DNA of 12,111 nucleotides from a virus (taxonomy: Duplodnaviria > Heunggongvirae > Uroviricota > Caudoviricetes): the IMG/VR virus record IMGVR_UViG_2537562217_000015. One strand, 5' to 3'. The notes below the pieces were generated by a model that saw nothing but the letters and a program-made list of their open reading frames with translations, did no database searches and was not told the DNA's origin. This document shows, one piece after another, positions 729 through 12,099 of this stretch. The position numbers and the translations under genes were made by a program. How positions within the stretch are numbered: the first letter of the stretch is position 1; each line of letters opens with the position of its first letter.

Positions 729-4130
<3,402 letters not shown>

Positions 4131-4187: not shown

Positions 4188-4859
4188 TCAGCGACCAATC
4201 ACCACAACCTGACCACCGTCCCCTTCGTCTGCCGTGCTGATCTCCTGAGAAACCACCCGTGACCCCACGCGCATTTCACCGTACAGAACGGGCAGAACAT
4301 TGCTCTGGGCAACCATGTTATCCAGGGAGGAGAAATAGGTGTTCTGTTTGCCGTTATCCGTTGTCTGTGTACGGGGAGTTCTGGCTTTCGGTGCCAGCAT
4401 CTGCGCCACACCACCGAGCACCATACTGGCACCGAGAGAAAACAGGATGCCGGTCATACCACCGGCCCCAATGGCTGCCCCCCATGCTGCAAGGGTGGCT
4501 CCGGCGGTAAAGAATGATCCGGCAATGGCGGCAGCCCCCAGGACAATCTGGAATACGCCCCCTGACTTGGCCCCGGCGACTCTGGGAACAATATGAATCA
4601 CAGCGCCATCAGGCAGAGTCTCATGTAACTGCGCCGTTAACCCGGACGTGCTGACGTCCCGCCCGGCAATCCGTACCTGATACCAGCCGTCGCTCAGTTT
4701 CTGACGAAACGCCGGGAGCTGTGTGGCCAGTGCCCGGATGGCTTCAGCCCCCGTTTTCACACGAAGGTCGATGCGGCGACCAAATCGTTGTAAATCCCCG
4801 TAAAGGCAGATGCGCGCCATGCCCGGTGACGCCAGAGGGAGTGTGTGCGTCGCTGCCAT
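4188..4859 (-). CDS. I: Tail tip assembly protein I
   Basis: 223 aa, the same length as lambda gpI, with a glycine/alanine-rich hydrophobic C-terminal half. Its 5' end overlaps the 3' end of K by 103 nt in another frame, as in lambda. ATG at 4857-4859. Confidence 0.9.
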   Translation of the reverse strand: MAATHTLPLASPGMARICLYGDLQRFGRRIDLRVKTGAEAIRALATQLPAFRQKLSDGWYQVRIAGRDVSTSGLTAQLHETLPDGAVIHIVPRVAGAKSGGVFQIVLGAAAIAGSFFTAGATLAAWGAAIGAGGMTGILFSLGASMVLGGVAQMLAPKARTPRTQTTDNGKQNTYFSSLDNMVAQSNVLPVLYGEMRVGSRVVSQEISTADEGDGGQVVVIGR

Positions 4860-5500
4860 TTGTCGGTGTACCTCTCTCGTTTGCTCAGTTGTTCAGGAAT
4901 ATGGTGCAGCAGCTCGCCGTCGCCGCAGTAAATTGCGGCGTGATTCGGCACCGATGAACCAAAACAGCACAGCAGCACATCGCCCGGCTGTGCCGCTGAC
5001 AACGGCACCTGATACAGCCCCGTCGCCTCCAGATTATCCAGATAGAGATTCTGGCCGTGACGCCACCAGTCATCCTCACGATGAAAGTCCGGCATCTCAA
5101 TCCCCGCCAGATGATAAGCATCCCGGAACAGCGTGTAACAGTCCGTCACCCCGTGCTCAAAGCACCGCCCGGTAAGATGCGGCACACAGCGGAACTTGTG
5201 AATCGCCCCCCGGCAGACCAGCCACCACGGCAAATCACTCTGCACCTGCAGCCGCCGGTCGGCCTCACTCAGCCAGGGCAGACCACCGGGGTGGCTGTGG
5301 ACCAGCGCCACAATCTCACCCTGCATTTCTGCCTGCAGCCAGTCTTCCGGCGACATACGGAAATAATCCTCCGGCTCACCGGAGATATTCACGCCGGGGA
5401 AATATCTTTCCCCCTCCGGCGCTCTCACCACGAAGCCGCACGACTCCGCTGGCGCACATCGCCGGGCGTGCGCCAGAATCGCTGATTCTGTCTCTGTCAT
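4757..5500 (-). CDS. K: Tail tip assembly protein K (JAMM/MPN metalloprotease-like plus NlpC/P60-like domains)
   Basis: The ORF runs 4757..5542, but the first in-frame ATG is at 5498-5500 (MTETESAIL…), 4 nt after the L stop. It contains the JAMM motif HSHPGGLPWLSEAD (H-x-H-x7-S-x2-D) with an upstream E-x-C-G (AESCGF), and a downstream Cys/His-bearing region consistent with NlpC/P60. The lambda-annotated start would correspond to ATG at 5354-5356 (MSPEDW…). Confidence 0.85.
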   Translation of the reverse strand: MTETESAILAHARRCAPAESCGFVVRAPEGERYFPGVNISGEPEDYFRMSPEDWLQAEMQGEIVALVHSHPGGLPWLSEADRRLQVQSDLPWWLVCRGAIHKFRCVPHLTGRCFEHGVTDCYTLFRDAYHLAGIEMPDFHREDDWWRHGQNLYLDNLEATGLYQVPLSAAQPGDVLLCCFGSSVPNHAAIYCGDGELLHHIPEQLSKRERYTDKWQRRTHSLWRHRAWRASAFTGIYNDLVAASTFV

Positions 5501-5504
5501 GGGA

Positions 5505-6203
5505 TTACTGCGAAAGTTTGTTAATGGAAAGGAAGCCGCCAAAGTTGCCGACGTTATTGCGAAACTTACAGCCGCTCAGGCATTTGCTGCATTTATCCTT
5601 CGTGATATCGGACGTCGGCTGGTCATATTCATCCGCGACTGCCGGACCGTGATAACCGCACTCATCACCGCGATAGGTCCAGGTGCAGGTGTTGGCCAGC
5701 ATGATACGCCCCGGAAAAACAGCGCCGTCCGTTTCCGTCGGCGTGGACAGTACAAAAGAGGCACTGACCGCGCTCAGTTCGCTGCACTGCTCGATGCGCC
5801 AGCGGCTGATCACCTCCTGCTCCGGATCGGCGTCACTGTTTCCGTTGACGAAGTTCACCGCATCCAGAAAACGGGCGTAAACCTTACGCCGGACCACCGT
5901 TCCGCCGACCAGACTCTGCAGATCTTCCGCCATCCCGGTGACCATACCGTACAGGTTAGAAACCGTCAGCGTGGGGCGCGTACTGGTGCCTTTGCCATTC
6001 AGTTCAAAACCACTCCCCTGAATGGGGTATGCCTGATACTGCCGCCCCTGCCAGGTAACCGGCTCACCTTTTTCGTTCTGCTCATTACAGAAAAAATAAC
6101 GTTCACCACCGACCTCTGTCAGATCGATTTCCCAGAGCACCACCTGGGCTGACTGAGTGAGGCGTGTCGTCTCATGATGTGTTTCCTGTGGAATATCCTG
6201 CAT
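5505..6203 (-). CDS. L: Tail tip protein L
   Basis: 232 aa, the same length as lambda gpL, with a C-terminal cysteine cluster (…CGYHGP…CSKCLSGC…) consistent with the Fe-S site reported for gpL. ATG at 6201-6203 is preceded by GAGG, 9 nt after the M stop. Confidence 0.9.
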   Translation of the reverse strand: MQDIPQETHHETTRLTQSAQVVLWEIDLTEVGGERYFFCNEQNEKGEPVTWQGRQYQAYPIQGSGFELNGKGTSTRPTLTVSNLYGMVTGMAEDLQSLVGGTVVRRKVYARFLDAVNFVNGNSDADPEQEVISRWRIEQCSELSAVSASFVLSTPTETDGAVFPGRIMLANTCTWTYRGDECGYHGPAVADEYDQPTSDITKDKCSKCLSGCKFRNNVGNFGGFLSINKLSQ

Positions 6204-6212
6204 CAGAGCCTC

Positions 6213-6542
6213 CTATGCCACGACCTGTTCAAAATCTGCCGTTATGGTTACCCACAGCGCCCCCACGCTTGCCGACCATTTACGACAAACCACCCTAATC
6301 GGTTTCCAGTCATAAGGTGGCGTCCACTGAAATGCGCGGACGCCACCGTGCTGTTCCAGAAAGGCTTTTAAAGATGGGTGTTCACATTTACGAACACGTA
6401 TCGTCACGCTGTAAGTCGACAACTGGTTATTCAGTCCCGCCGCACGACGCTGTTCATAACCATCGCCCAGCTTCACTGTCACCACTTTCGGCTCTGATAC
6501 CACATTCATATCCGGGCGCACTTTCCAGTGAAACGTCTCCAT
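6213..6542 (-). CDS. M: Tail tip protein M
   Basis: 109 aa, the same length as lambda gpM. Its start codon overlaps the H stop (TAATG arrangement on the minus strand). It lies between H and L. Confidence 0.9.
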   Translation of the reverse strand: METFHWKVRPDMNVVSEPKVVTVKLGDGYEQRRAAGLNNQLSTYSVTIRVRKCEHPSLKAFLEQHGGVRAFQWTPPYDWKPIRVVCRKWSASVGALWVTITADFEQVVA

Positions 6543-9500
6543 TACCGATATGCTCCACTTAACCGACCACCATCACGGGCCTGCTGTTGCATAAAGTCCG
6601 CTGCAGCTTTTTTCCCAAGGTCATAAACCACCTTCAGGGCAGCCGGACCTATCTGCCCGTTCGTGCCATCGTTATTGATCTCAATGTTGTACTGCGGGGC
6701 AAACATCGCCATACCTGAACCACCAATATCCGCCACAACCCCCAGCTTACCGTCAGCACCACGACGAAGTGGCAGAATGGCTTCAGGTCCCGCTTCCCCC
6801 ATCACACCCGCGCCTTTTGCAAAAGCAAAAAACGTCGGACGGTTAACCACCGTGCCACTGTAGCGACTCAAATCAGCCGACTGATAAACACCGCCATCAG
6901 CATTGGCTACAAAATCAAAAGGCAGCGCGGAAGCAATGCCTTTTACCGCTTTCATTAAAGCTATCTGAGCCATGATTCTGGACATATCTGACAGCACAGA
7001 AGAAGTAAAAGATTTGAAATTGAGTTTGCCTGTAGTACAGAATGTCGCCAGCCAGTCACTCATGCTACTGAACGCAGACGTGAACAACTGTTCCACTGTC
7101 CAGGCTGTGTTATCCGCATTCTCAGTGACATTCTGGAGTGCACGCAGGACTCCGTTTTTCCAGTTACCCTGAGCAATTTCAAGCTGTTGCCAGTAACGGC
7201 GATTCTCATTCAGTTGTCGGTTCAGGCTCTCCGTCAGCGCCTGCTCGGCCTTTCTGTAGTCATCCGTGTTATATGTCCCTTTCTGCTCACTATCCCGCCT
7301 CAACTGCTCCAGCTGTTGCTGGTATTTCTGACGAAGACTCAGTTGTACCTGATATCGCTGCCGCTGCTGATCACCCATACCCACCGTGGCGATATCCAGA
7401 TTATGTTGTTGACGCTGAGCACGCTCTTCTTCAGCCAGTTGACTGGTCAGCTGAATTGTTTTTTTCTTCAGCTCGTTGAGTGCCGTCTGTTTCTGAAGCT
7501 CCTGCTGTTTTACATCCAGCAGCGTCAGTGCCTGAATCAGTTCATCTTTACGGGCCAGCACACTCTTTTCATCTTCCGTCAGTTTTTTCCCGTCCAGGTC
7601 GCTGATGCGCTGCTGCAGAGCCAGAAGCTGTTTATGCGCTTCTGTCATCCTTTCCGTGGCAATGCCTGCTGACTGTCTGGCAGCAGCAATCTGTCCTTCC
7701 ACCTGTGCCTGTTGCTGACTGTACTGCAGCAATAACCGGGTGGCCTCATCATTACGGGTTTCGCGTGTTTTTTTCTTACCGGATGCCAGGGCTTTCTCGT
7801 AACGTTCATTTTCACGTTGTATCGCCGCATCCCTGACAGTCTGATCGGCGTACTGCATGGCATTAATACGCGCAATTTCACGCTGATGTCGTGCTGCTTC
7901 CGTTTCATTCATCCGGTTCAGTGCAGCATTTTCAGCATTACGGCGTTTCTGTTGCTCCTGATAATTCCGCTCTGCCTGCTCATTTGCATCCTGCAAATCC
8001 TTCTGGCGTTTTTTCTCCTGAAGCTCGTTAAGACGCTGCTGATCGTACTCAACCTGAGAAAATGATGCCGTCCAGGGAAGTCTTTTCGCCCGCGACACTT
8101 TCTCCTGTAAAGCGGAAATCTGTTCATCCAGCGAGTCTTCAAGACCAATATTCATGGCCGCATCCCAGAAACGACTCCATAAATCAGACAGATACTTCAG
8201 CGTACTGCCCAGCGCATTGAGGTTATTATCAATATCCGCAGTACGCCGACCGGTTTCCTCTGCCAGTGCAGACATGGCTATCCGTGCCGCATCACTGGAC
8301 CGCCCCTGTTCCCCAAGGACGCGTATCTGCTCAAGCTGAGTGGCAGTAAGAAAATGCAGCTCATTGTCCAGAGCCTTCGCGGCATTTACAGGATCATCCT
8401 TCAGCCGCTTAAACTGATTTATGGTATCGCCGACCGACTGGCCAACCGATCGCTCCATCTGTGCGGCAGCTCTCGCCACCATACCGATATCGTTTCCACG
8501 AAATGCACCACTCCCCACCACCTGAGCCAGCGCACCGGCTGCAGCATGTTGCGTAATACCATTCCCGGAAATAGCACGACTGAGCGTCCACAGCTGCCCG
8601 GCAGTGACTCCGGCATAATGCCCCGTCAGCGACAACTGGCGGTTAAATTCTTCCCCCTCCTTCTGACCATCATACCAGGCTTTACCCAGACCATAGACGG
8701 CCGCGGCAATACCGCCAATAACCCCGCCCAGCATCATGCCTTTCGGTGACATCAGTGTGTCTATCCATCCGGCACGGTTAGCCAGCGTTATCCCGGATCC
8801 CCTCAGCGCACCTAAATTGCCGCGAGCCAGTTCACCTATCAGAACGCCTATCTCCTGGCGGGCCGCTGCACTTTTCAGACCCAGCGAATGCGTGGCTTTT
8901 CCTGCCTGCTCCATTTTGCGGATATACACTTCTGCAGCACTGCTTACCCCCAGCTGGGCAGCCTTAGCACGAAGCAACTCAGAAGAGGAAAGATTCTGGC
9001 GGGTTGCCTGCTCTTTAAGCTGACGGATAAACGCCACTTTCTGTCGGGTAGCCTCTGCCTCAGCCTGCGTAAGAACACGGGTTTTCGCCGTAACCTCAGA
9101 AATCAGCGCCAGATAATCCTGCTGACCAATCCCGCCACTGTTTCTGGCCTGTCGGATCTGCTGCTGAATACGCTGTAATTCCTGCAGCCCCGCACTGGCC
9201 TGTTTCACACTGTCAATCTGACGATAAAACGCGGCAGCCGCTTTATCCTGAGCCTCCGCCAGAGCCATGGCCTGCGCCTGTTCCTCGCGCATTTTCTGGC
9301 TCAGTGCCTCCATACGCTGGCGGGTTTGCTCCACCTCGCGGGCCATGCGTTCATGAGCCTGTGCGCTCTTCTCCACCGTCTGCGCATGGACGGATGCGGC
9401 TGTTGCAGCCGAAGAAGCCGCCTGCATTGTCTGCCGGGCGGCCTGAGTCTGACGCTCCATAAAACGCTGCATACGGGCAGAAGACCGTTCTGCATCGCTG

Positions 9501-9598
9501 GCTGCACCATTCAGAAGGTTTTTGATACGGGGAATTTCATTTTTAAACTCTGCCGCATCAATCCCCAAATCAATGACCAGGTTGGCTATCTGGTCCAT
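6542..9598 (-). CDS. H: Tail tape-measure protein (gpH equivalent, variant and longer than lambda H)
   Basis: The ORF spans 6542..9628. The likely start is ATG 9596-9598 (MDQIANLVIDL…), preceded by GGAGGTG with a 6-nt spacer, giving about 1018 aa. It has a long, highly helical Q/A/E/R-rich central region, a hydrophobic glycine-rich segment (MMLGGVIGGIAAAVYGLG), and a C-terminal INNDGTNGQIGPAALK segment resembling the lambda H C-terminus. It sits immediately upstream of M. Confidence 0.9.
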   Translation of the reverse strand: MDQIANLVIDLGIDAAEFKNEIPRIKNLLNGAASDAERSSARMQRFMERQTQAARQTMQAASSAATAASVHAQTVEKSAQAHERMAREVEQTRQRMEALSQKMREEQAQAMALAEAQDKAAAAFYRQIDSVKQASAGLQELQRIQQQIRQARNSGGIGQQDYLALISEVTAKTRVLTQAEAEATRQKVAFIRQLKEQATRQNLSSSELLRAKAAQLGVSSAAEVYIRKMEQAGKATHSLGLKSAAARQEIGVLIGELARGNLGALRGSGITLANRAGWIDTLMSPKGMMLGGVIGGIAAAVYGLGKAWYDGQKEGEEFNRQLSLTGHYAGVTAGQLWTLSRAISGNGITQHAAAGALAQVVGSGAFRGNDIGMVARAAAQMERSVGQSVGDTINQFKRLKDDPVNAAKALDNELHFLTATQLEQIRVLGEQGRSSDAARIAMSALAEETGRRTADIDNNLNALGSTLKYLSDLWSRFWDAAMNIGLEDSLDEQISALQEKVSRAKRLPWTASFSQVEYDQQRLNELQEKKRQKDLQDANEQAERNYQEQQKRRNAENAALNRMNETEAARHQREIARINAMQYADQTVRDAAIQRENERYEKALASGKKKTRETRNDEATRLLLQYSQQQAQVEGQIAAARQSAGIATERMTEAHKQLLALQQRISDLDGKKLTEDEKSVLARKDELIQALTLLDVKQQELQKQTALNELKKKTIQLTSQLAEEERAQRQQHNLDIATVGMGDQQRQRYQVQLSLRQKYQQQLEQLRRDSEQKGTYNTDDYRKAEQALTESLNRQLNENRRYWQQLEIAQGNWKNGVLRALQNVTENADNTAWTVEQLFTSAFSSMSDWLATFCTTGKLNFKSFTSSVLSDMSRIMAQIALMKAVKGIASALPFDFVANADGGVYQSADLSRYSGTVVNRPTFFAFAKGAGVMGEAGPEAILPLRRGADGKLGVVADIGGSGMAMFAPQYNIEINNDGTNGQIGPAALKVVYDLGKKAAADFMQQQARDGGRLSGAYR

Positions 9599-9683
9599 AA
9601 CGCACACCTCCGGAAATACCTTCCCCAAGATGCATCAGTTCTTCGTCCGTTCGCTCCGGTATCCCGTTCTCTTCCGGTAAAAG
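9599..9683 (-). pseudogene. Possible 3' remnant of the upstream tail assembly chaperone gene (G/G-T equivalent), truncated by IS66
   Basis: 85 bp of non-IS DNA between the IS66 left end and the H start. It is open on the minus strand in two frames, one ending at TGA 9635-9637 and one running on to TGA 9570-9572, overlapping the H start. In lambda the T reading frame ends overlapping the H start. This is an inference; no start codon or upstream part is present. Confidence 0.25.
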
Positions 9684-9764: not shown

Positions 9765-10169
9765 ATGAAATCATTAACCGCAGTGCGTAAAAAAAGCCCT
9801 AATTATCCCGTTGAGTTCAAAATCAAAATGGTGGAACTCTCGCATCGACCAGAGATCTCCGTAGCGCAACTCGCTCGTGAGCATGGGATCAACGATAATT
9901 TGCTGTTCAAGTGGCGCCAGTACTGGCGCGAAGGAAAACTACGTCCTCCTTCAACAACAGAAAACAACGTGCCTGAGCTGCTCCCGATAACACTTGATGC
10001 CGAAGATGTTGTCCCTACAACCTCCCCCCGGTCACAACCTGTAGCTGCTGCGACACCTGAATCACTCAATATCAGCTGTGAAGTGACGTTCCGGCACGGA
10101 TCACTCCGTCTGAATGGTGCCATCAGCGAAAATATCCTGAACCTGCTGATACGGGAGCTCAAACGTTGA
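9765..10169 (+). CDS. tnpA: IS66-family accessory protein TnpA (Orf1)
   Basis: 134-aa ORF starting 81 bp inside the IS end. The N-terminal region (ISVAQLAREHGINDNLLFKWRQ) looks like a helix-turn-helix. Its stop overlaps the next ORF's start by 4 nt. Confidence 0.85.
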   Translation: MKSLTAVRKKSPNYPVEFKIKMVELSHRPEISVAQLAREHGINDNLLFKWRQYWREGKLRPPSTTENNVPELLPITLDAEDVVPTTSPRSQPVAAATPESLNISCEVTFRHGSLRLNGAISENILNLLIRELKR

Positions 10170-10513
10170 TCCCATTACCATCAGGGACAAAGATCTGGCT
10201 GGTCGCTGGCATCACCGATATGAGAAACGGCTTCAACGGCCTGGCGGCAAAGGTGCAGACGACGCTGAAAGACGATCCGATGTCAGGTCACGTTTTTATC
10301 TTCCGTGGGCGTAATGGCAGTCAGGTAAAGCTCCTCTGGTCTACCGGCGATGGACTGTGTCTGCTGACCAAACGGCTGGAGCGCGGCCGCTTCGCCTGGC
10401 CGTCAGCCCGGGATGGCAAAGTGTTCCTCACACCGGCACAGCTGGCGATGCTGCTGGAAGGTATCGACTGGCGGCAGCCTAAAAGACTACTTACGTCCCT
10501 GACTATGTTGTAA
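10166..10513 (+). CDS. tnpB: IS66-family TnpB (Orf2); unrelated to IS200/IS605 TnpB
   Basis: 115-aa ORF (MIPLPSGTKIWLVAGITDMRNGFNGL…), the typical size and sequence character of IS66 Orf2. Its apparent start is TTG at 10166-10168, overlapping the tnpA stop (TTGA). Confidence 0.85.
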   Translation: MIPLPSGTKIWLVAGITDMRNGFNGLAAKVQTTLKDDPMSGHVFIFRGRNGSQVKLLWSTGDGLCLLTKRLERGRFAWPSARDGKVFLTPAQLAMLLEGIDWRQPKRLLTSLTML

Positions 10514-10561
10514 GCCTCTTTATCCTGGTCGACGCTGAATGAGCCTGGTAATATACCCGGT

Positions 10562-12099
10562 ATGAGCAGCTCACTTCCTGACGATATCAATGCACTGAAA
10601 CGTCTCCTTGCCGAACAGGAGGCGCTGAACCGTGCCCTGCTGGAAAAGCTGAACGAGCGTGAACGCGAAATAGACCATCTGCAGGCACAGCTGGATAAGC
10701 TGCGCCGGATGAACTTCGGCAGCCGCTCGGAAAAAGTCTCCCGTCGTATCGCACAGATGGAAGCTGACCTGAAGGCACTTCAGAAAGAAAGTGATACCCT
10801 TACCGGTCGGGTTGACGACCCGGCCGTGCAGCGCCCGCTGCGTCAAACCCGCACCCGCAAACCGTTCCCCGAATCACTCCCCCGCGATGAAAAACGGCTG
10901 CTGCCGGCAGCGTCATGCTGCCCGGAATGTGGAGGCTCGCTGAGCTATCTGGGTGAGGATGCCGCCGAACAGCTGGAGTTGATGCGCAGCGCCTTCCGGG
11001 TTATCCGGACTGTACGTGAAAAGCATGCCTGTACTCAGTGCGATGCCATCGTGCAGGCCCCCGCGCCTTCACGGCCCATCGAGCGGGGTATCGCAGGACC
11101 GGGGCTGCTGGCCCGCGTGCTGATCTCAAAGTATGCAGAGCACACCCCGCTGTACCGCCAGTCTGAAATGTACGGCCGCCAGGGCGTGGAGCTGAGTCGT
11201 TCACTGCTGTCGGGCTGGGTGGATGCATGCTGCCGGCTACTGTCACCGCTGGAAGAAGCGCTTCAGGACTATGTGCTGACTGACGGTAAGCTCCATGCTG
11301 ATGACACGCCTGTCCCGGTGCTGTTGCCAGGCAATAAGAAAACGAAGACCGGGCGGTTATGGACCTACGTTCGTGACGACCGTAACGCCGGGTCAACGCT
11401 GGCGCCGGCGGTGTGGTTCGCTTACAGCCCGGACAGAAAAGGCATCCATCCGCAGACCCATCTTGCGGGGTTCAGTGGTGTACTGCAGGCGGATGCATAC
11501 GCCGGGTTCAACGAGCTGTACCGGGATGGCCGGATAACGGAAGCCGCCTGTTGGGCTCACGCCCGCCGTAAAATCCACGATGTGCACGTTCGCACCCCGT
11601 CAGCCCTGACGGAGGAAGCGCTGAACGGATCGGCGAACTGTACGCCATCGAGGCAGAGATAAGGGGAATGACGGCGGAGCAGCGCCTTGCCGAACGTCAG
11701 TTGAAAACGAAACCGCTGCTGAAATCCCTGGAAAGCTGGCTGCGTGAAAAGATGAAAACCCTGTCGCGACACTCAGAACTGGCGAAAGCGTTCGCATACG
11801 CCCTGAACCAGTGGCTGGCGCTGACGTACTATGCAGATGATGGCTGGGCTGAGGCGGACAATAACATCGCTGAAAATGCGTTGCGGATGGTCAGTCTGGG
11901 CCGCAAAAACTACCTGTTCTTCGGTTCGGATCATGGAGGAGAGCGGGGAGCGCTGCTGTACAGCCTGATCGGGACGTGCAAACTGAACGGAGTGGAGCCA
12001 GAAAGCTACCTCCGCTATGTCCTTGACGTCATAGCCGACTGGCCGATAAACCGGGTCGGCGAACTGCTCCCCTGGCGCGTAGCACTGCCGACTGAATAA
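10562..12099 (+). pseudogene. tnpC: IS66-family transposase TnpC, interrupted by a frameshift
   Basis: Two adjacent ORFs in different frames (10562..11662, 366 aa; 11668..12099, 143 aa) that together give about 510 aa. There is an N-terminal leucine-zipper-like coiled coil ([38 protein letters not shown]) and a CxxC…CxxC motif (CCPECGG…CTQCD). The reading frame is continuous across 11621-11628 (CTGAACGG) if one base is restored, giving …EEAL[21 protein letters not shown]…. Confidence 0.75.

Follow-up and report, generated by a model that had tools for sequence, protein, structure and literature searches.

A 247-residue tail tip assembly protein K with two predicted peptidase domains in a lambda-like prophage, and a base missing from the lambda reference

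The window, the whole 12,111-nucleotide stretch of Caudoviricetes DNA analysed here, carries a tail gene cluster in which K lies between L and the gene I that encodes a ubiquitin-like (Ubl) domain, upstream of J (Table 1), and annotated relatives are ordered alike. On the minus strand, the long K open reading frame runs from ATG 5500-5498 to TGA 4759-4757 (247 codons plus stop), and a second in-frame ATG, encoding Met49, sits exactly 48 codons downstream of the first. The longer product would have 247 aa and 28.3 kDa and begins MTETESAILAHAR, and the shorter one would have 199 aa and 23.0 kDa and begins MSPEDW. An earlier note on this DNA had claimed that the frame is open for 48 codons above the internal ATG, up to an ATG 4 nt past the L stop, and all of these coordinates were verified. 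At its 3' end K is overlapped by gene I over 64-103 nt. Against the PHROG profiles, K matches phrog_30, 'minor tail protein', with E=1e-159. An even longer frame of 261 aa starting at TTG 5542 was rejected, as this start is inside L and the openness of the frame upstream of the ATG is variable among relatives. The chance of finding 48 open codons is about 0.10-0.13 and thus unremarkable alone; the significance of the extension comes from its domain match and conservation, not from the open frame itself.

Table 1. Genes, domains and sequence elements at the K locus (positions in the window)
Feature	Position	Strand	Remarks
Gene L (minor tail protein L)	5505..6203	(-)	Pfam Phage_tail_L, 336 bits; candidate coupling partner upstream of K
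L-K junction	5498..5507	(-)	L stop TAA 5507-5505, 4-nt spacer tccc, K start ATG 5500-5498
Gene K, full length (tail tip assembly protein K; JAB/JAMM + NlpC/P60)	4757..5500	(-)	ORF and translation
48-codon N-terminal extension	5357..5500	(-)	Absent from 199-aa annotation; first half of predicted JAMM domain
AESCGFVV, residues 18-25	5426..5449	(-)	Predicted JAMM catalytic glutamate: E19 (5446-5444)
GGAGG, Shine-Dalgarno-like	5368..5372	(-)	11 nt before internal ATG, within codons for E-P-E-D
Internal ATG (Met49)	5354..5356	(-)	Start of classical 199-aa annotation (MSPEDW...); equivalent to lambda 14276
HSHPGGLPWLSEAD, residues 68-81	5258..5299	(-)	H-x-H-x7-S-x2-D, predicted zinc-binding half of the JAMM motif
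NlpC/P60 (C40) papain-like peptidase domain, residues 114-224	4829..5161	(-)	Pfam NLPC_P60 (PF00877), 48.2 bits
Predicted NlpC/P60 triad	C121 5140-5138; H187 4942-4940; H199 4906-4904	(-)	Invariant among 101 relatives
Gene I (tail assembly protein I)	4188..4859	(-)	Pfam Lambda_tail_I, residues 14-97; predicted substrate of K
Gene J	729-4127		ORF list; downstream of K and I

Motif, profile and fold all support the prediction that approximately residues 1-105 of K form a JAMM/MPN+ (Prok-JAB) zinc metallopeptidase domain. The five residues of the JAMM signature (E19, H68, H70, S78 and D81) are all present in K. The earlier note had read an E-x-C-G element in the extension as the JAMM glutamate motif and had paired it with an H-x-H-x7-S-x2-D motif downstream; the latter fits residues 68-81, and a profile alignment places E19 in register with the glutamate of solved JAMM proteins. 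In this profile search of the PDB, residues 2-105 of K align with 2kks, 2kcq and 5lda, and E19 falls on the E of PNEACG/PEEGCG, the P-x-E-x-C-G motif of 2kks and 2kcq. The 247-aa K scores 50.2 bits against Prok-JAB (PF14464; Pfam cut-off 25 bits), covering profile positions 4-103 of 114 with residues 4-98. In contrast, the 199-aa form covers only positions 63-103 and, at 22.9 bits, falls below the cut-off, in agreement with the note's view that a shorter K loses part of the domain. The 48-aa extension by itself matches profile positions 3-40.

An AlphaFold2 model of the 247-aa K has a pLDDT of 81 overall and 91-94 over residues 1-40, with a helix at 3-15 and strands at 20-27 and 30-36. The 48 codons would thus supply the JAMM domain with its opening helix, its two initial strands and its catalytic glutamate, and a K starting at Met49 would hold only half a JAMM domain. 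The model of the 199-aa form is poor throughout (pLDDT 44), but it was built from only 5 near-identical sequences; the comparison with and without the extension, suggested in the earlier note, is thereby confounded and carries no weight here. In a Foldseek search with the latter, the best PDB matches were 5ld9/5lda (Pyrococcus JAMM1), followed by Rpn11, CSN5 and AMSH, as expected of an MPN fold; Pyrococcus furiosus JAMM1 (5LD9/5LDA) was matched with a TM of 0.67 on target and an rmsd of 2.8 Å. With prokaryotic JAMM/MPN+ peptidases K shares the E...H-x-H-x7-S-x2-D pattern at nearly the same spacing, and its gene adjoins one whose ubiquitin-like domain ends in GG, as is the case for Ubl-acting JAMM peptidases. 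However, K is only about 21% identical to these enzymes (JAMM1/HvJAMM1) and is fused to an NlpC/P60 domain, and in place of an isopeptide conjugate it would presumably cleave a linear Ubl-linker-plug protein. Against the desampylase equivalog (HvJAMM1, NCBIfam NF041370) K scores 26.3 bits with a cut-off of 130, which makes it a relative of this family that does not belong to it.

The C-terminal domain is likewise supported as a predicted NlpC/P60 cysteine peptidase, by a profile score above the Pfam cut-off (23 bits for NLPC_P60), a conserved Cys-His-His and fold and profile matches of the C-terminal half to MepS, CwlO and LytE. The NLPC_P60 match, the Cys-His-His and the fold are thus common to K, MepS/Spr of E. 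coli and CwlO and LytE of B. subtilis. Unlike these peptidases, K has no noted signal peptide or cell-wall-binding domain, and it is not in the virion.

The extension is conserved as protein. Among the ORFs of 101 distinct relatives, E19, H68, H70, S78, D81, C121, H187 and H199 are invariant, and so are C21 and G22. Within the extension, 22 homologs of 68-97% identity share I8, L9, H11, A12, P17, E19, S20, C21 and G22, as well as Y33, N38, S40 and F47. Even in 61 distant representatives (33-57% identity), G22, N38, H68, H70 and D81 are invariant, and P17, E19, C21, F47, S78, C121 and H187 are conserved in at least 90%. For codons 2-48 the dN/dS was 0.26 in close relatives (dS 0.10) and 0.23 in distant ones, where dS is saturated; the rest of the K gene gave 0.11-0.18. 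Judged from these substitution patterns, the extension is under purifying selection. A constraint at the level of DNA or RNA was rejected as the cause of the conservation, as synonymous changes are common and non-synonymous ones rare. By tblastn, every complete homologous ORF has one continuous frame, down to 34% identity, the exceptions being the lambda reference and its copies. Full-length homologs mostly have 242-249 aa with PF14464 and PF00877, and among the best 150 listed of 2,658 representatives (E<=0.001) the full-length ones match from about query residue 2-10 onward. The earlier note had suggested aligning K homologs and comparing synonymous with non-synonymous change, and had named frameshifts or stops in close relatives as evidence against its reading. 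Both comparisons favour that reading, with protein-level conservation in relatives down to 33-57% identity and a dN/dS of about 0.25, and the extensions of the fetched loci contain neither frameshifts nor stops, again save for the lambda reference and its copies.

The gene is the one that encodes lambda K (TAPK; UniProt TIPK_LAMBD P03729, GenBank AAA96551), with L-K-I-J ordered alike in both, and the architecture of lambda K according to Iyer et al. 2006 (JAB + NlpC/P60) is the same as that found here. The 247-aa K of re-sequenced lambda is 96.8% identical to K in the window, a close relationship; the two have eight amino-acid differences, of which those in the extension are at residues 3 (T3Q), 26, 27, 36 and 45. 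In contrast to both, the K of the lambda reference and of UniProt has 199 aa, most likely due to a missing G. In J02459 and NC_001416, K spans 14276..14875 and has 199 aa, the length that the earlier note had taken for lambda K. These records, the lambda sequence of 1982 and its copy NC_001416, are without one G after position 14266, 10 nt before ATG 14276 (GGAGGC-TATTTCCGTATG in J02459 versus GGAGGCGTATTTCCGTATG in lambda imm21). Because this base is absent, the extension is out of frame in the lambda reference: a TGA stands in the K frame 21 nt upstream of ATG 14276, where the same frame is open in the window, and both records translate to a 76-aa out-of-frame ORF.

The sequences of OM418625, EU078592 (DE3), JQ086376 (HK630) and PV340536 each give a 247-aa K, and the G is present in 10 contaminant lambda contigs from unrelated genome assemblies, also in LC730321 and KT232076. 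Among the records compared, the deletion is carried only by J02459, NC_001416, OR974322 and OR474059. Over the 1.8 kb compared, the last two do not differ from J02459 at any base; one bears the reference feature coordinates and the other is labelled 'UNVERIFIED', and they are probably reference-derived. From this distribution, the base missing from J02459 most likely produced the 199-aa K, that of UniProt TIPK_LAMBD included, as an artefact, which annotation transfer then spread. The omission could be either a gel-reading error or a real mutation of the 1982 stock, as both fit the sequence data. Programmed frameshifting in lambda was considered and rejected: it would require J02459 to shift by -1 within GCC GGA GGC, which contains no slippery heptamer, and the idea is unnecessary because every independent sequence has the extra G. 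Thus the earlier note appears to have been right that the functional K has about 247 aa, but the short annotation is not merely a poor choice of start, since the omission in J02459 breaks the frame. Re-sequencing pipelines presumably list this base as '+G at 14,266, intergenic L/K', as in the breseq lambda example, and suppliers' notes on the lambda sequence, we assume, mention the extra G. Our full-text literature search found no explicit statement of a 247-aa lambda K or of an error in J02459; the coverage of that search being incomplete, an earlier mention is possible.

The explanation that best fits the locus, and that we hold with high confidence, is that the window encodes the complete 247-aa K of a lambda-like E. 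coli prophage with two peptidase domains, and that the 199-aa K derives from the omission in J02459. It has to be weighed against the signals for initiation, which favour the internal ATG. No Shine-Dalgarno match was found before ATG 5500 by the energy of the duplex with the anti-Shine-Dalgarno sequence (+0.7 kcal/mol), versus -9.5 kcal/mol before the internal ATG, where the GGAGG lies. This GGAGG accounts for the RBS that the CPT annotation places at this site and for the frequency of 199-aa calls. For ATG 5500, the absence of a Shine-Dalgarno sequence makes it probable that K is initiated by termination-reinitiation coupled to L. In 75 of the 101 distinct relatives the upstream gene stops 4-5 nt ahead of the K start, and a range of -4 to +26 nt takes in 94 of them. 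Translational coupling, as proposed in the earlier note, is therefore plausible. Our search of the accessible literature turned up no direct protein data on where K begins or on its mass, nor any experimental report of zinc binding or peptidase activity.

The classical view, in which the functional K starts at Met49 and the 48 codons are an untranslated spacer or a separate small ORF, could appeal to the strong Shine-Dalgarno-like site, to the lambda reference annotation and UniProt TIPK_LAMBD, and to the viability of the reference phage, for which the short form must be sufficient if the deletion is real. Nevertheless, this view is highly improbable given the purifying selection on the 48 codons, the conservation of E19 in both sets of relatives, the frame that is continuous down to 34% identity, the Prok-JAB cut-off that is passed only with the extension, and the confinement of the deletion to J02459 and records identical to it. 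Another possibility is that both forms are made, the 247-aa form by coupling to L and the 199-aa form from ATG 5356 via the GGAGG, the latter with its NlpC/P60 domain whole but its JAMM domain crippled. Besides the difference in duplex energy, the retention of ATG and GGAGG in most E. coli-type relatives would fit two isoforms, as would the frequent choice of Met49 by gene callers, with 199-aa clusters of thousands of members. However, codon 49 is ATG in 83 of the 101 distinct relatives, whereas the remaining 18 have a codon for Ile, Val or Leu, and in the same set the GGAGG is restricted to the E. coli-type clade, where it is just the codons for E-P-E-[ADE]. The 11-nt spacing from GGAGG to ATG is longer than optimal, and half a JAMM domain is unlikely to fold. 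We consider two isoforms rather unlikely.

If the 247-aa K is the functional form, it would be a 28-kDa non-structural tail-tip assembly enzyme translated from ATG 5500. Most likely, its JAMM domain would act in a deubiquitinase-like manner on the neighbouring gpI, a proposal that goes back to Iyer et al. 2006 (PMC1779556), who predicted that TAPK (JAB+NlpC/P60) processes the ubiquitin-like TAPI. The gene I product is laid out as an N-terminal ubiquitin-like domain, a Gly-rich hydrophobic linker and a C-terminal plug domain, and in an alignment of relatives the ubiquitin-like domain ends with a conserved G-A-K-x-G-G. The cut would fall after this GG (residues 100-101 of I in the window), K would depart along with the Ubl, and the linker and plug would take up their place under gpH, the C-terminal part of I (residues 134-223 being those seen in virions) thus forming the plug of mature tail tips. 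In lambda, K is needed for tail assembly and is not in the virion (PMC10721106; PMC10695390); gpK was absent from virions by mass spectrometry, and gpI was resolved only at residues 135-223 (PMC10721106). Ur-lambda is likewise without gpK, with gpI resolved at 134-222 (PMC12617516), and F-pyocin particles lack the K homolog PA0639 and show the gpI homolog only at 127-200 (bioRxiv 10.64898/2026.02.24.707460). Alternatively, disorder in the cryo-EM maps may be all that hides the N-terminal part of gpI. That the JAMM domain of K is a true deubiquitinase-like maturation protease cutting gpI after the GG during tail-tip assembly is a tentative reading, to which we give somewhat less than an even chance. 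Alternatively, the JAMM domain could be complete and act as a non-catalytic scaffold (MPN-, cf. Rpn8), with K working as a chaperone or solely via its NlpC/P60 domain. A scaffold would be in keeping with the absence of any reported activity of K and with the lambda tail assembly literature, which calls K only 'required' (PMC12617516). However, MPN- domains have lost the E/H-x-H/S/D residues, whereas K proteins across 33-100% identity keep all five with little or no variation; this speaks for retained catalysis and makes the scaffold improbable.

The length of K matters in practice, as cloning 'K' by the reference coordinates gives half a JAMM domain, and mapping reads, Ribo-seq data or variants to NC_001416 leads to half a JAMM domain or to a +G that is scored 'intergenic'. 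Work on the role of K in tail assembly and on the N-terminal, ubiquitin-like half of gpI requires the 247-aa protein. If the maturation protease reading is true, the function of K may have escaped testing partly since reference-based clones would miss the 48 residues that include the catalytic glutamate; with a correct 247-aa construct, the cleavage of gpI becomes directly testable. The 199-aa K is still given in J02459, NC_001416, the reviewed UniProt entry TIPK_LAMBD and the annotations of several modern lambda derivatives (DE3, HK630, imm21), and a 2020 review treated gpK as a 199-aa protein with a single peptidase domain. Nevertheless, the finding is already known, as the architecture was published in 2006 and RefSeq PGAP gives the 247-aa form, and it corrects an old annotation rather than being a discovery. 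The point added beyond the earlier note is the G missing from J02459/NC_001416, which most likely lies behind the 199-aa K. NCBI already lists the exact 247-aa protein of the window under the name 'C40 family peptidase'; in an E. coli prophage with 99.9% identity, PGAP predicts the same CDS of 744 nt, and the annotated one of PV340536 also has 744 nt.

The reading frame of K, the lambda-type tail tip assembly gene, extends 48 codons upstream of the start used in the classical 199-residue annotation. An earlier note had claimed from the sequence alone that K is probably about 247 residues long and that the extension completes a JAMM active site; all of its coordinates were correct when checked on the window sequence. 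Since 48 codons stay open by chance with a probability of about 0.1, this fact by itself proves nothing.

Features of the window and motifs of K
Feature	Position	Strand	Remarks
lom/Ail homolog	63-662	minus	full-length; Pfam Ail_Lom, 401 bits
J	729-4127	minus	tail gene
I	4188-4859	minus	tail gene
GAKSGG of I	about 4557-4577	minus	residues 95-101
Candidate I starts	ATG 4859-4857, ATG 4820-4818, GTG 4760-4758	minus
K ORF	ATG 5500-5498 to TGA 4759-4757	minus	247 open codons
Internal ATG of K	5356-5354	minus	codon 49 (MSPEDW...); counterpart of lambda K start
AESCGFVV			K residues 18-25
HSHPGGLPWLSEAD			K residues 68-81
L stop TAA	5507-5505	minus	then tccc, then K ATG
L	5505-6203	minus	tail gene
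M	6213-6542	minus	tail gene
Tape-measure gene	6542-9628	minus
HTH_Tnp_1 ORF	9765-10169	plus	IS66-family element
IS66 Orf2/TnpB ORF	10166-10513	plus
DDE_Tnp_IS66 transposase	10562-11662 + 11668-12099	plus	split in two ORFs

Full-length K homologs in databases are mostly 242-249 aa long and carry PF14464 together with PF00877. A library of 1.84 billion representatives yielded 2,658 matching proteins, and among the best 150 of these the alignment starts at query residue ~2-10 in full-length proteins of 35-59% identity. In tblastn comparisons with loci taken from viral and genome collections, every complete homologous ORF (231-252 aa) forms a single continuous frame, even where identity falls to 34-45%, as in Neisseria, Ignatzschineria and an acidobacterial MAG. 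The earlier note had proposed aligning homologs and comparing synonymous with non-synonymous change, and both bear it out. Thirteen extension residues (I8, L9, H11, A12, P17, E19, S20, C21, G22, Y33, N38, S40 and F47) are invariant in 22 homologs of 68-97% identity; in 61 representatives of 33-57% identity, G22, N38, H68, H70 and D81 are invariant, and P17, E19, C21, F47, S69 and S78 are at least 90% conserved. In codons 2-48, Nei-Gojobori dN/dS comes to 0.26 within a set of 82 distinct close relatives and to 0.23 against 19 distant ones; the remainder of the gene gives 0.11-0.18. The extension is thus under clear protein-level purifying selection, only slightly weaker than elsewhere in K. No variation was found at E19, C21, G22, H68, H70, S78, D81, C121, H187 or H199 in any of the 101 distinct ORFs.

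Against Pfam Prok-JAB (cut-off 25 bits) the 247-residue protein scores 50.2 bits and covers positions 4-103 of the 114 in the profile, whereas the 199-residue form scores 22.9 bits at positions 63-103 only; as the earlier note had claimed, a shorter annotation loses part of the JAMM domain. The isolated extension matches positions 3-40. In a distant-homolog profile, K residues 2-105 align to the solved JAMM proteins 2kks, 2kcq and 5lda, and the P-x-E-x-C-G of the K family falls on their PNEACG/PEEGCG, in agreement with E19 as the JAMM glutamate. The AlphaFold2 model of the long form has a mean pLDDT of 81 (91-94 for residues 1-40); its top PDB fold matches are Pyrococcus furiosus JAMM1 (5ld9/5lda; target TM 0.67, rmsd 2.8 Å), Rpn11 and CSN5, and its C-terminal half matches NlpC/P60 enzymes such as MepS, CwlO and LytE. 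The motif residues of AfJAMM are E22, H67, H69, S77 and D80, a spacing that nearly equals E19...H68-x-H70...S78-x-x-D81 of K. Every sequence and predicted-fold test applied places K with both JAMM/MPN+ and NlpC/P60 proteins, and its synteny and identity are those of lambda K; it scores 26 bits where the desampylase equivalog family requires 130, and so is no member of that family. The observation of a long K is confirmed and its interpretation supported. Neither the long form nor its domain architecture is new, since RefSeq, Pfam and the literature of 2006 have them already, and the paper describing the JAMM motif already listed lambda K (PMC300881).

The picture of a frame open upstream of the classical start holds in the window and fails in the lambda reference records J02459 and NC_001416, where the stretch before K is out of frame with it. 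The reference reads GGAGGC-TATTTCCGTATG and lambda imm21 reads GGAGGCGTATTTCCGTATG; because one G is missing, a TGA in frame with K stands 21 nt ahead of ATG 14276, and the L-proximal ATG opens only a 76-codon out-of-frame ORF. Six independently sequenced lambda or lambda-derived genomes, OM418625 (imm21), EU078592 (DE3), JQ086376 (HK630), PV340536, LC730321 and KT232076, carry the additional G and read through 247 codons without a break, as do ten lambda contigs contaminating unrelated bacterial assemblies. These contigs (loci L088, L090-L092 and L094-L099), evidently lambda control DNA, served here as independent re-sequencing; many are of low coverage, several are ~48.4 kb, and their K is 100% identical to lambda's. 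The assemblies are labelled Neobacillus, Pseudomonas, Chromatium, Paenibacillus, Shewanella, Desulfosporosinus, Bradyrhizobium, Leeuwenhoekiella and others.

Among the sequences compared, the deletion is confined to the reference records J02459 and NC_001416 and to two recent GenBank 'lambda' records, OR974322.1 and OR474059.1. The latter two equal J02459 base for base over the compared 1.8 kb, missing G included, and are probably reference-derived rather than independently assembled; one is described as coming from chicken cloacal swabs, the other carries the mark UNVERIFIED, and the feature coordinates of OR974322 are those of the reference. It is possible that the missing G was a real mutation in the stock sequenced for the reference, but the most economical reading of these sequences is that the 1982 work missed a G in a G+C-rich run. 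The 199-residue annotation then spread by transfer. In DE3, HK630 and imm21 the frame is open, yet K is annotated as 199 aa; KT232076 gives 211 aa, and PV340536, mEp460 (NC_019716) and PGAP on E. coli chromosomes give 247 aa. The exact 247-residue lambda K already occurs in public databases, on 1,000 contigs or more, where its names include 'C40 family peptidase' and 'Predicted metal-dependent protease of the PAD1/JAB1 superfamily'. The 199-residue sequence is AAA96551 and UniProt TIPK_LAMBD, and a 2020 review still credits gpK with 199 residues and places its peptidase domain at 52-182 (PMC7291167). What is chiefly added to the first account is this cause, the apparent one-base omission, which still truncates K in J02459, NC_001416, UniProt and work relying on them. 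Some PHROGs families hit by K resemble fragments of it, namely phrog_7305 (76 aa, N-terminal piece), phrog_2635 (135 aa, JAB half) and phrog_2552 (142 aa, NlpC/P60 half), and phrog_30 (544 positions) appears to take in L-K fusions, which suggests that phage annotations often split or mis-call K.

The upstream ATG lacks a Shine-Dalgarno complement (best anti-SD duplex +0.7 kcal/mol), which together with the adjacent L stop fits a translation of K coupled to that of L. This stop lies 4-5 nt upstream of the K start in 75 of the 101 distinct relatives and between -4 and +26 nt in 94; modest AGGA or GAGG sites precede the start in more distant ones. GGAGG lies 11 nt upstream of the internal ATG (anti-SD duplex -9.5 kcal/mol) and, with the reference frameshift, explains the historical start choice and many automated 199-residue calls; the imm21 record marks it as RBS. 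A minor short isoform made from this site in the E. coli-type clade is nevertheless unlikely. The GGAGG consists of codons for E-P-E-[ADE], and relatives outside that clade lack it; in 18 of the 101 relatives codon 49 encodes Ile, Val or Leu, so the internal start, judged from these sequences, is not a conserved family feature.

According to Iyer et al. (2006), TAPK has a JAB+NlpC/P60 architecture and is encoded beside TAPI, whose N-terminal ubiquitin-like domain ends in a conserved glycine; they proposed processing of I by K (PMC1779556). In I of the window, Pfam Lambda_tail_I covers residues 14-97, and the ubiquitin-like domain ends in G-A-K-x-G-G, conserved across relatives from E. coli to Neisseria and resembling the C-terminal GG of ubiquitin. 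Recent cryo-EM of mature tail tips from lambda and Ur-lambda shows gpI only at residues 134/135-223, and gpK is not found in the virions (PMC10721106, PMC12617516); in the F-pyocin structure the gpI homolog is visible only at residues 127-200. The GAKSGG lies ~33 residues before the virion-visible part of gpI (134-223). These facts are compatible with a tentative scheme in which K would process I as a deubiquitinase-like maturation enzyme.

The start of I is annotated inconsistently (4757-4859, minus strand). PGAP, PV340536 and mEp460 use the GTG overlapping the K stop, giving 190 aa, and this version looks wrong, as it would miss the first strand of the ubiquitin-like domain. Because the Lambda_tail_I match refers to a 223-aa I, conservation begins at Met14, 'MARICLYGDLQRFG' (15 relatives), and several relatives lack any start codon at -4, I really does begin inside K and shares 64 or 103 nt with its 3' end.

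Over K and L the window shares 96.5% identity with lambda, 97.2% with mEp460_4F5 and 99.9% with a prophage of E. coli strain 510016, which marks it as distinct from lambda itself. As in lambda, J is followed downstream by a homolog of the Ail/Lom outer-membrane proteins. An IS66-family insertion sequence (9765-12099, plus strand) lies directly upstream of the tape-measure ORF, where lambda would have its tail genes G/T and V, which makes it probable that the prophage is defective. The tape-measure gene of the 510016 prophage is flagged as an N-terminally truncated pseudogene.
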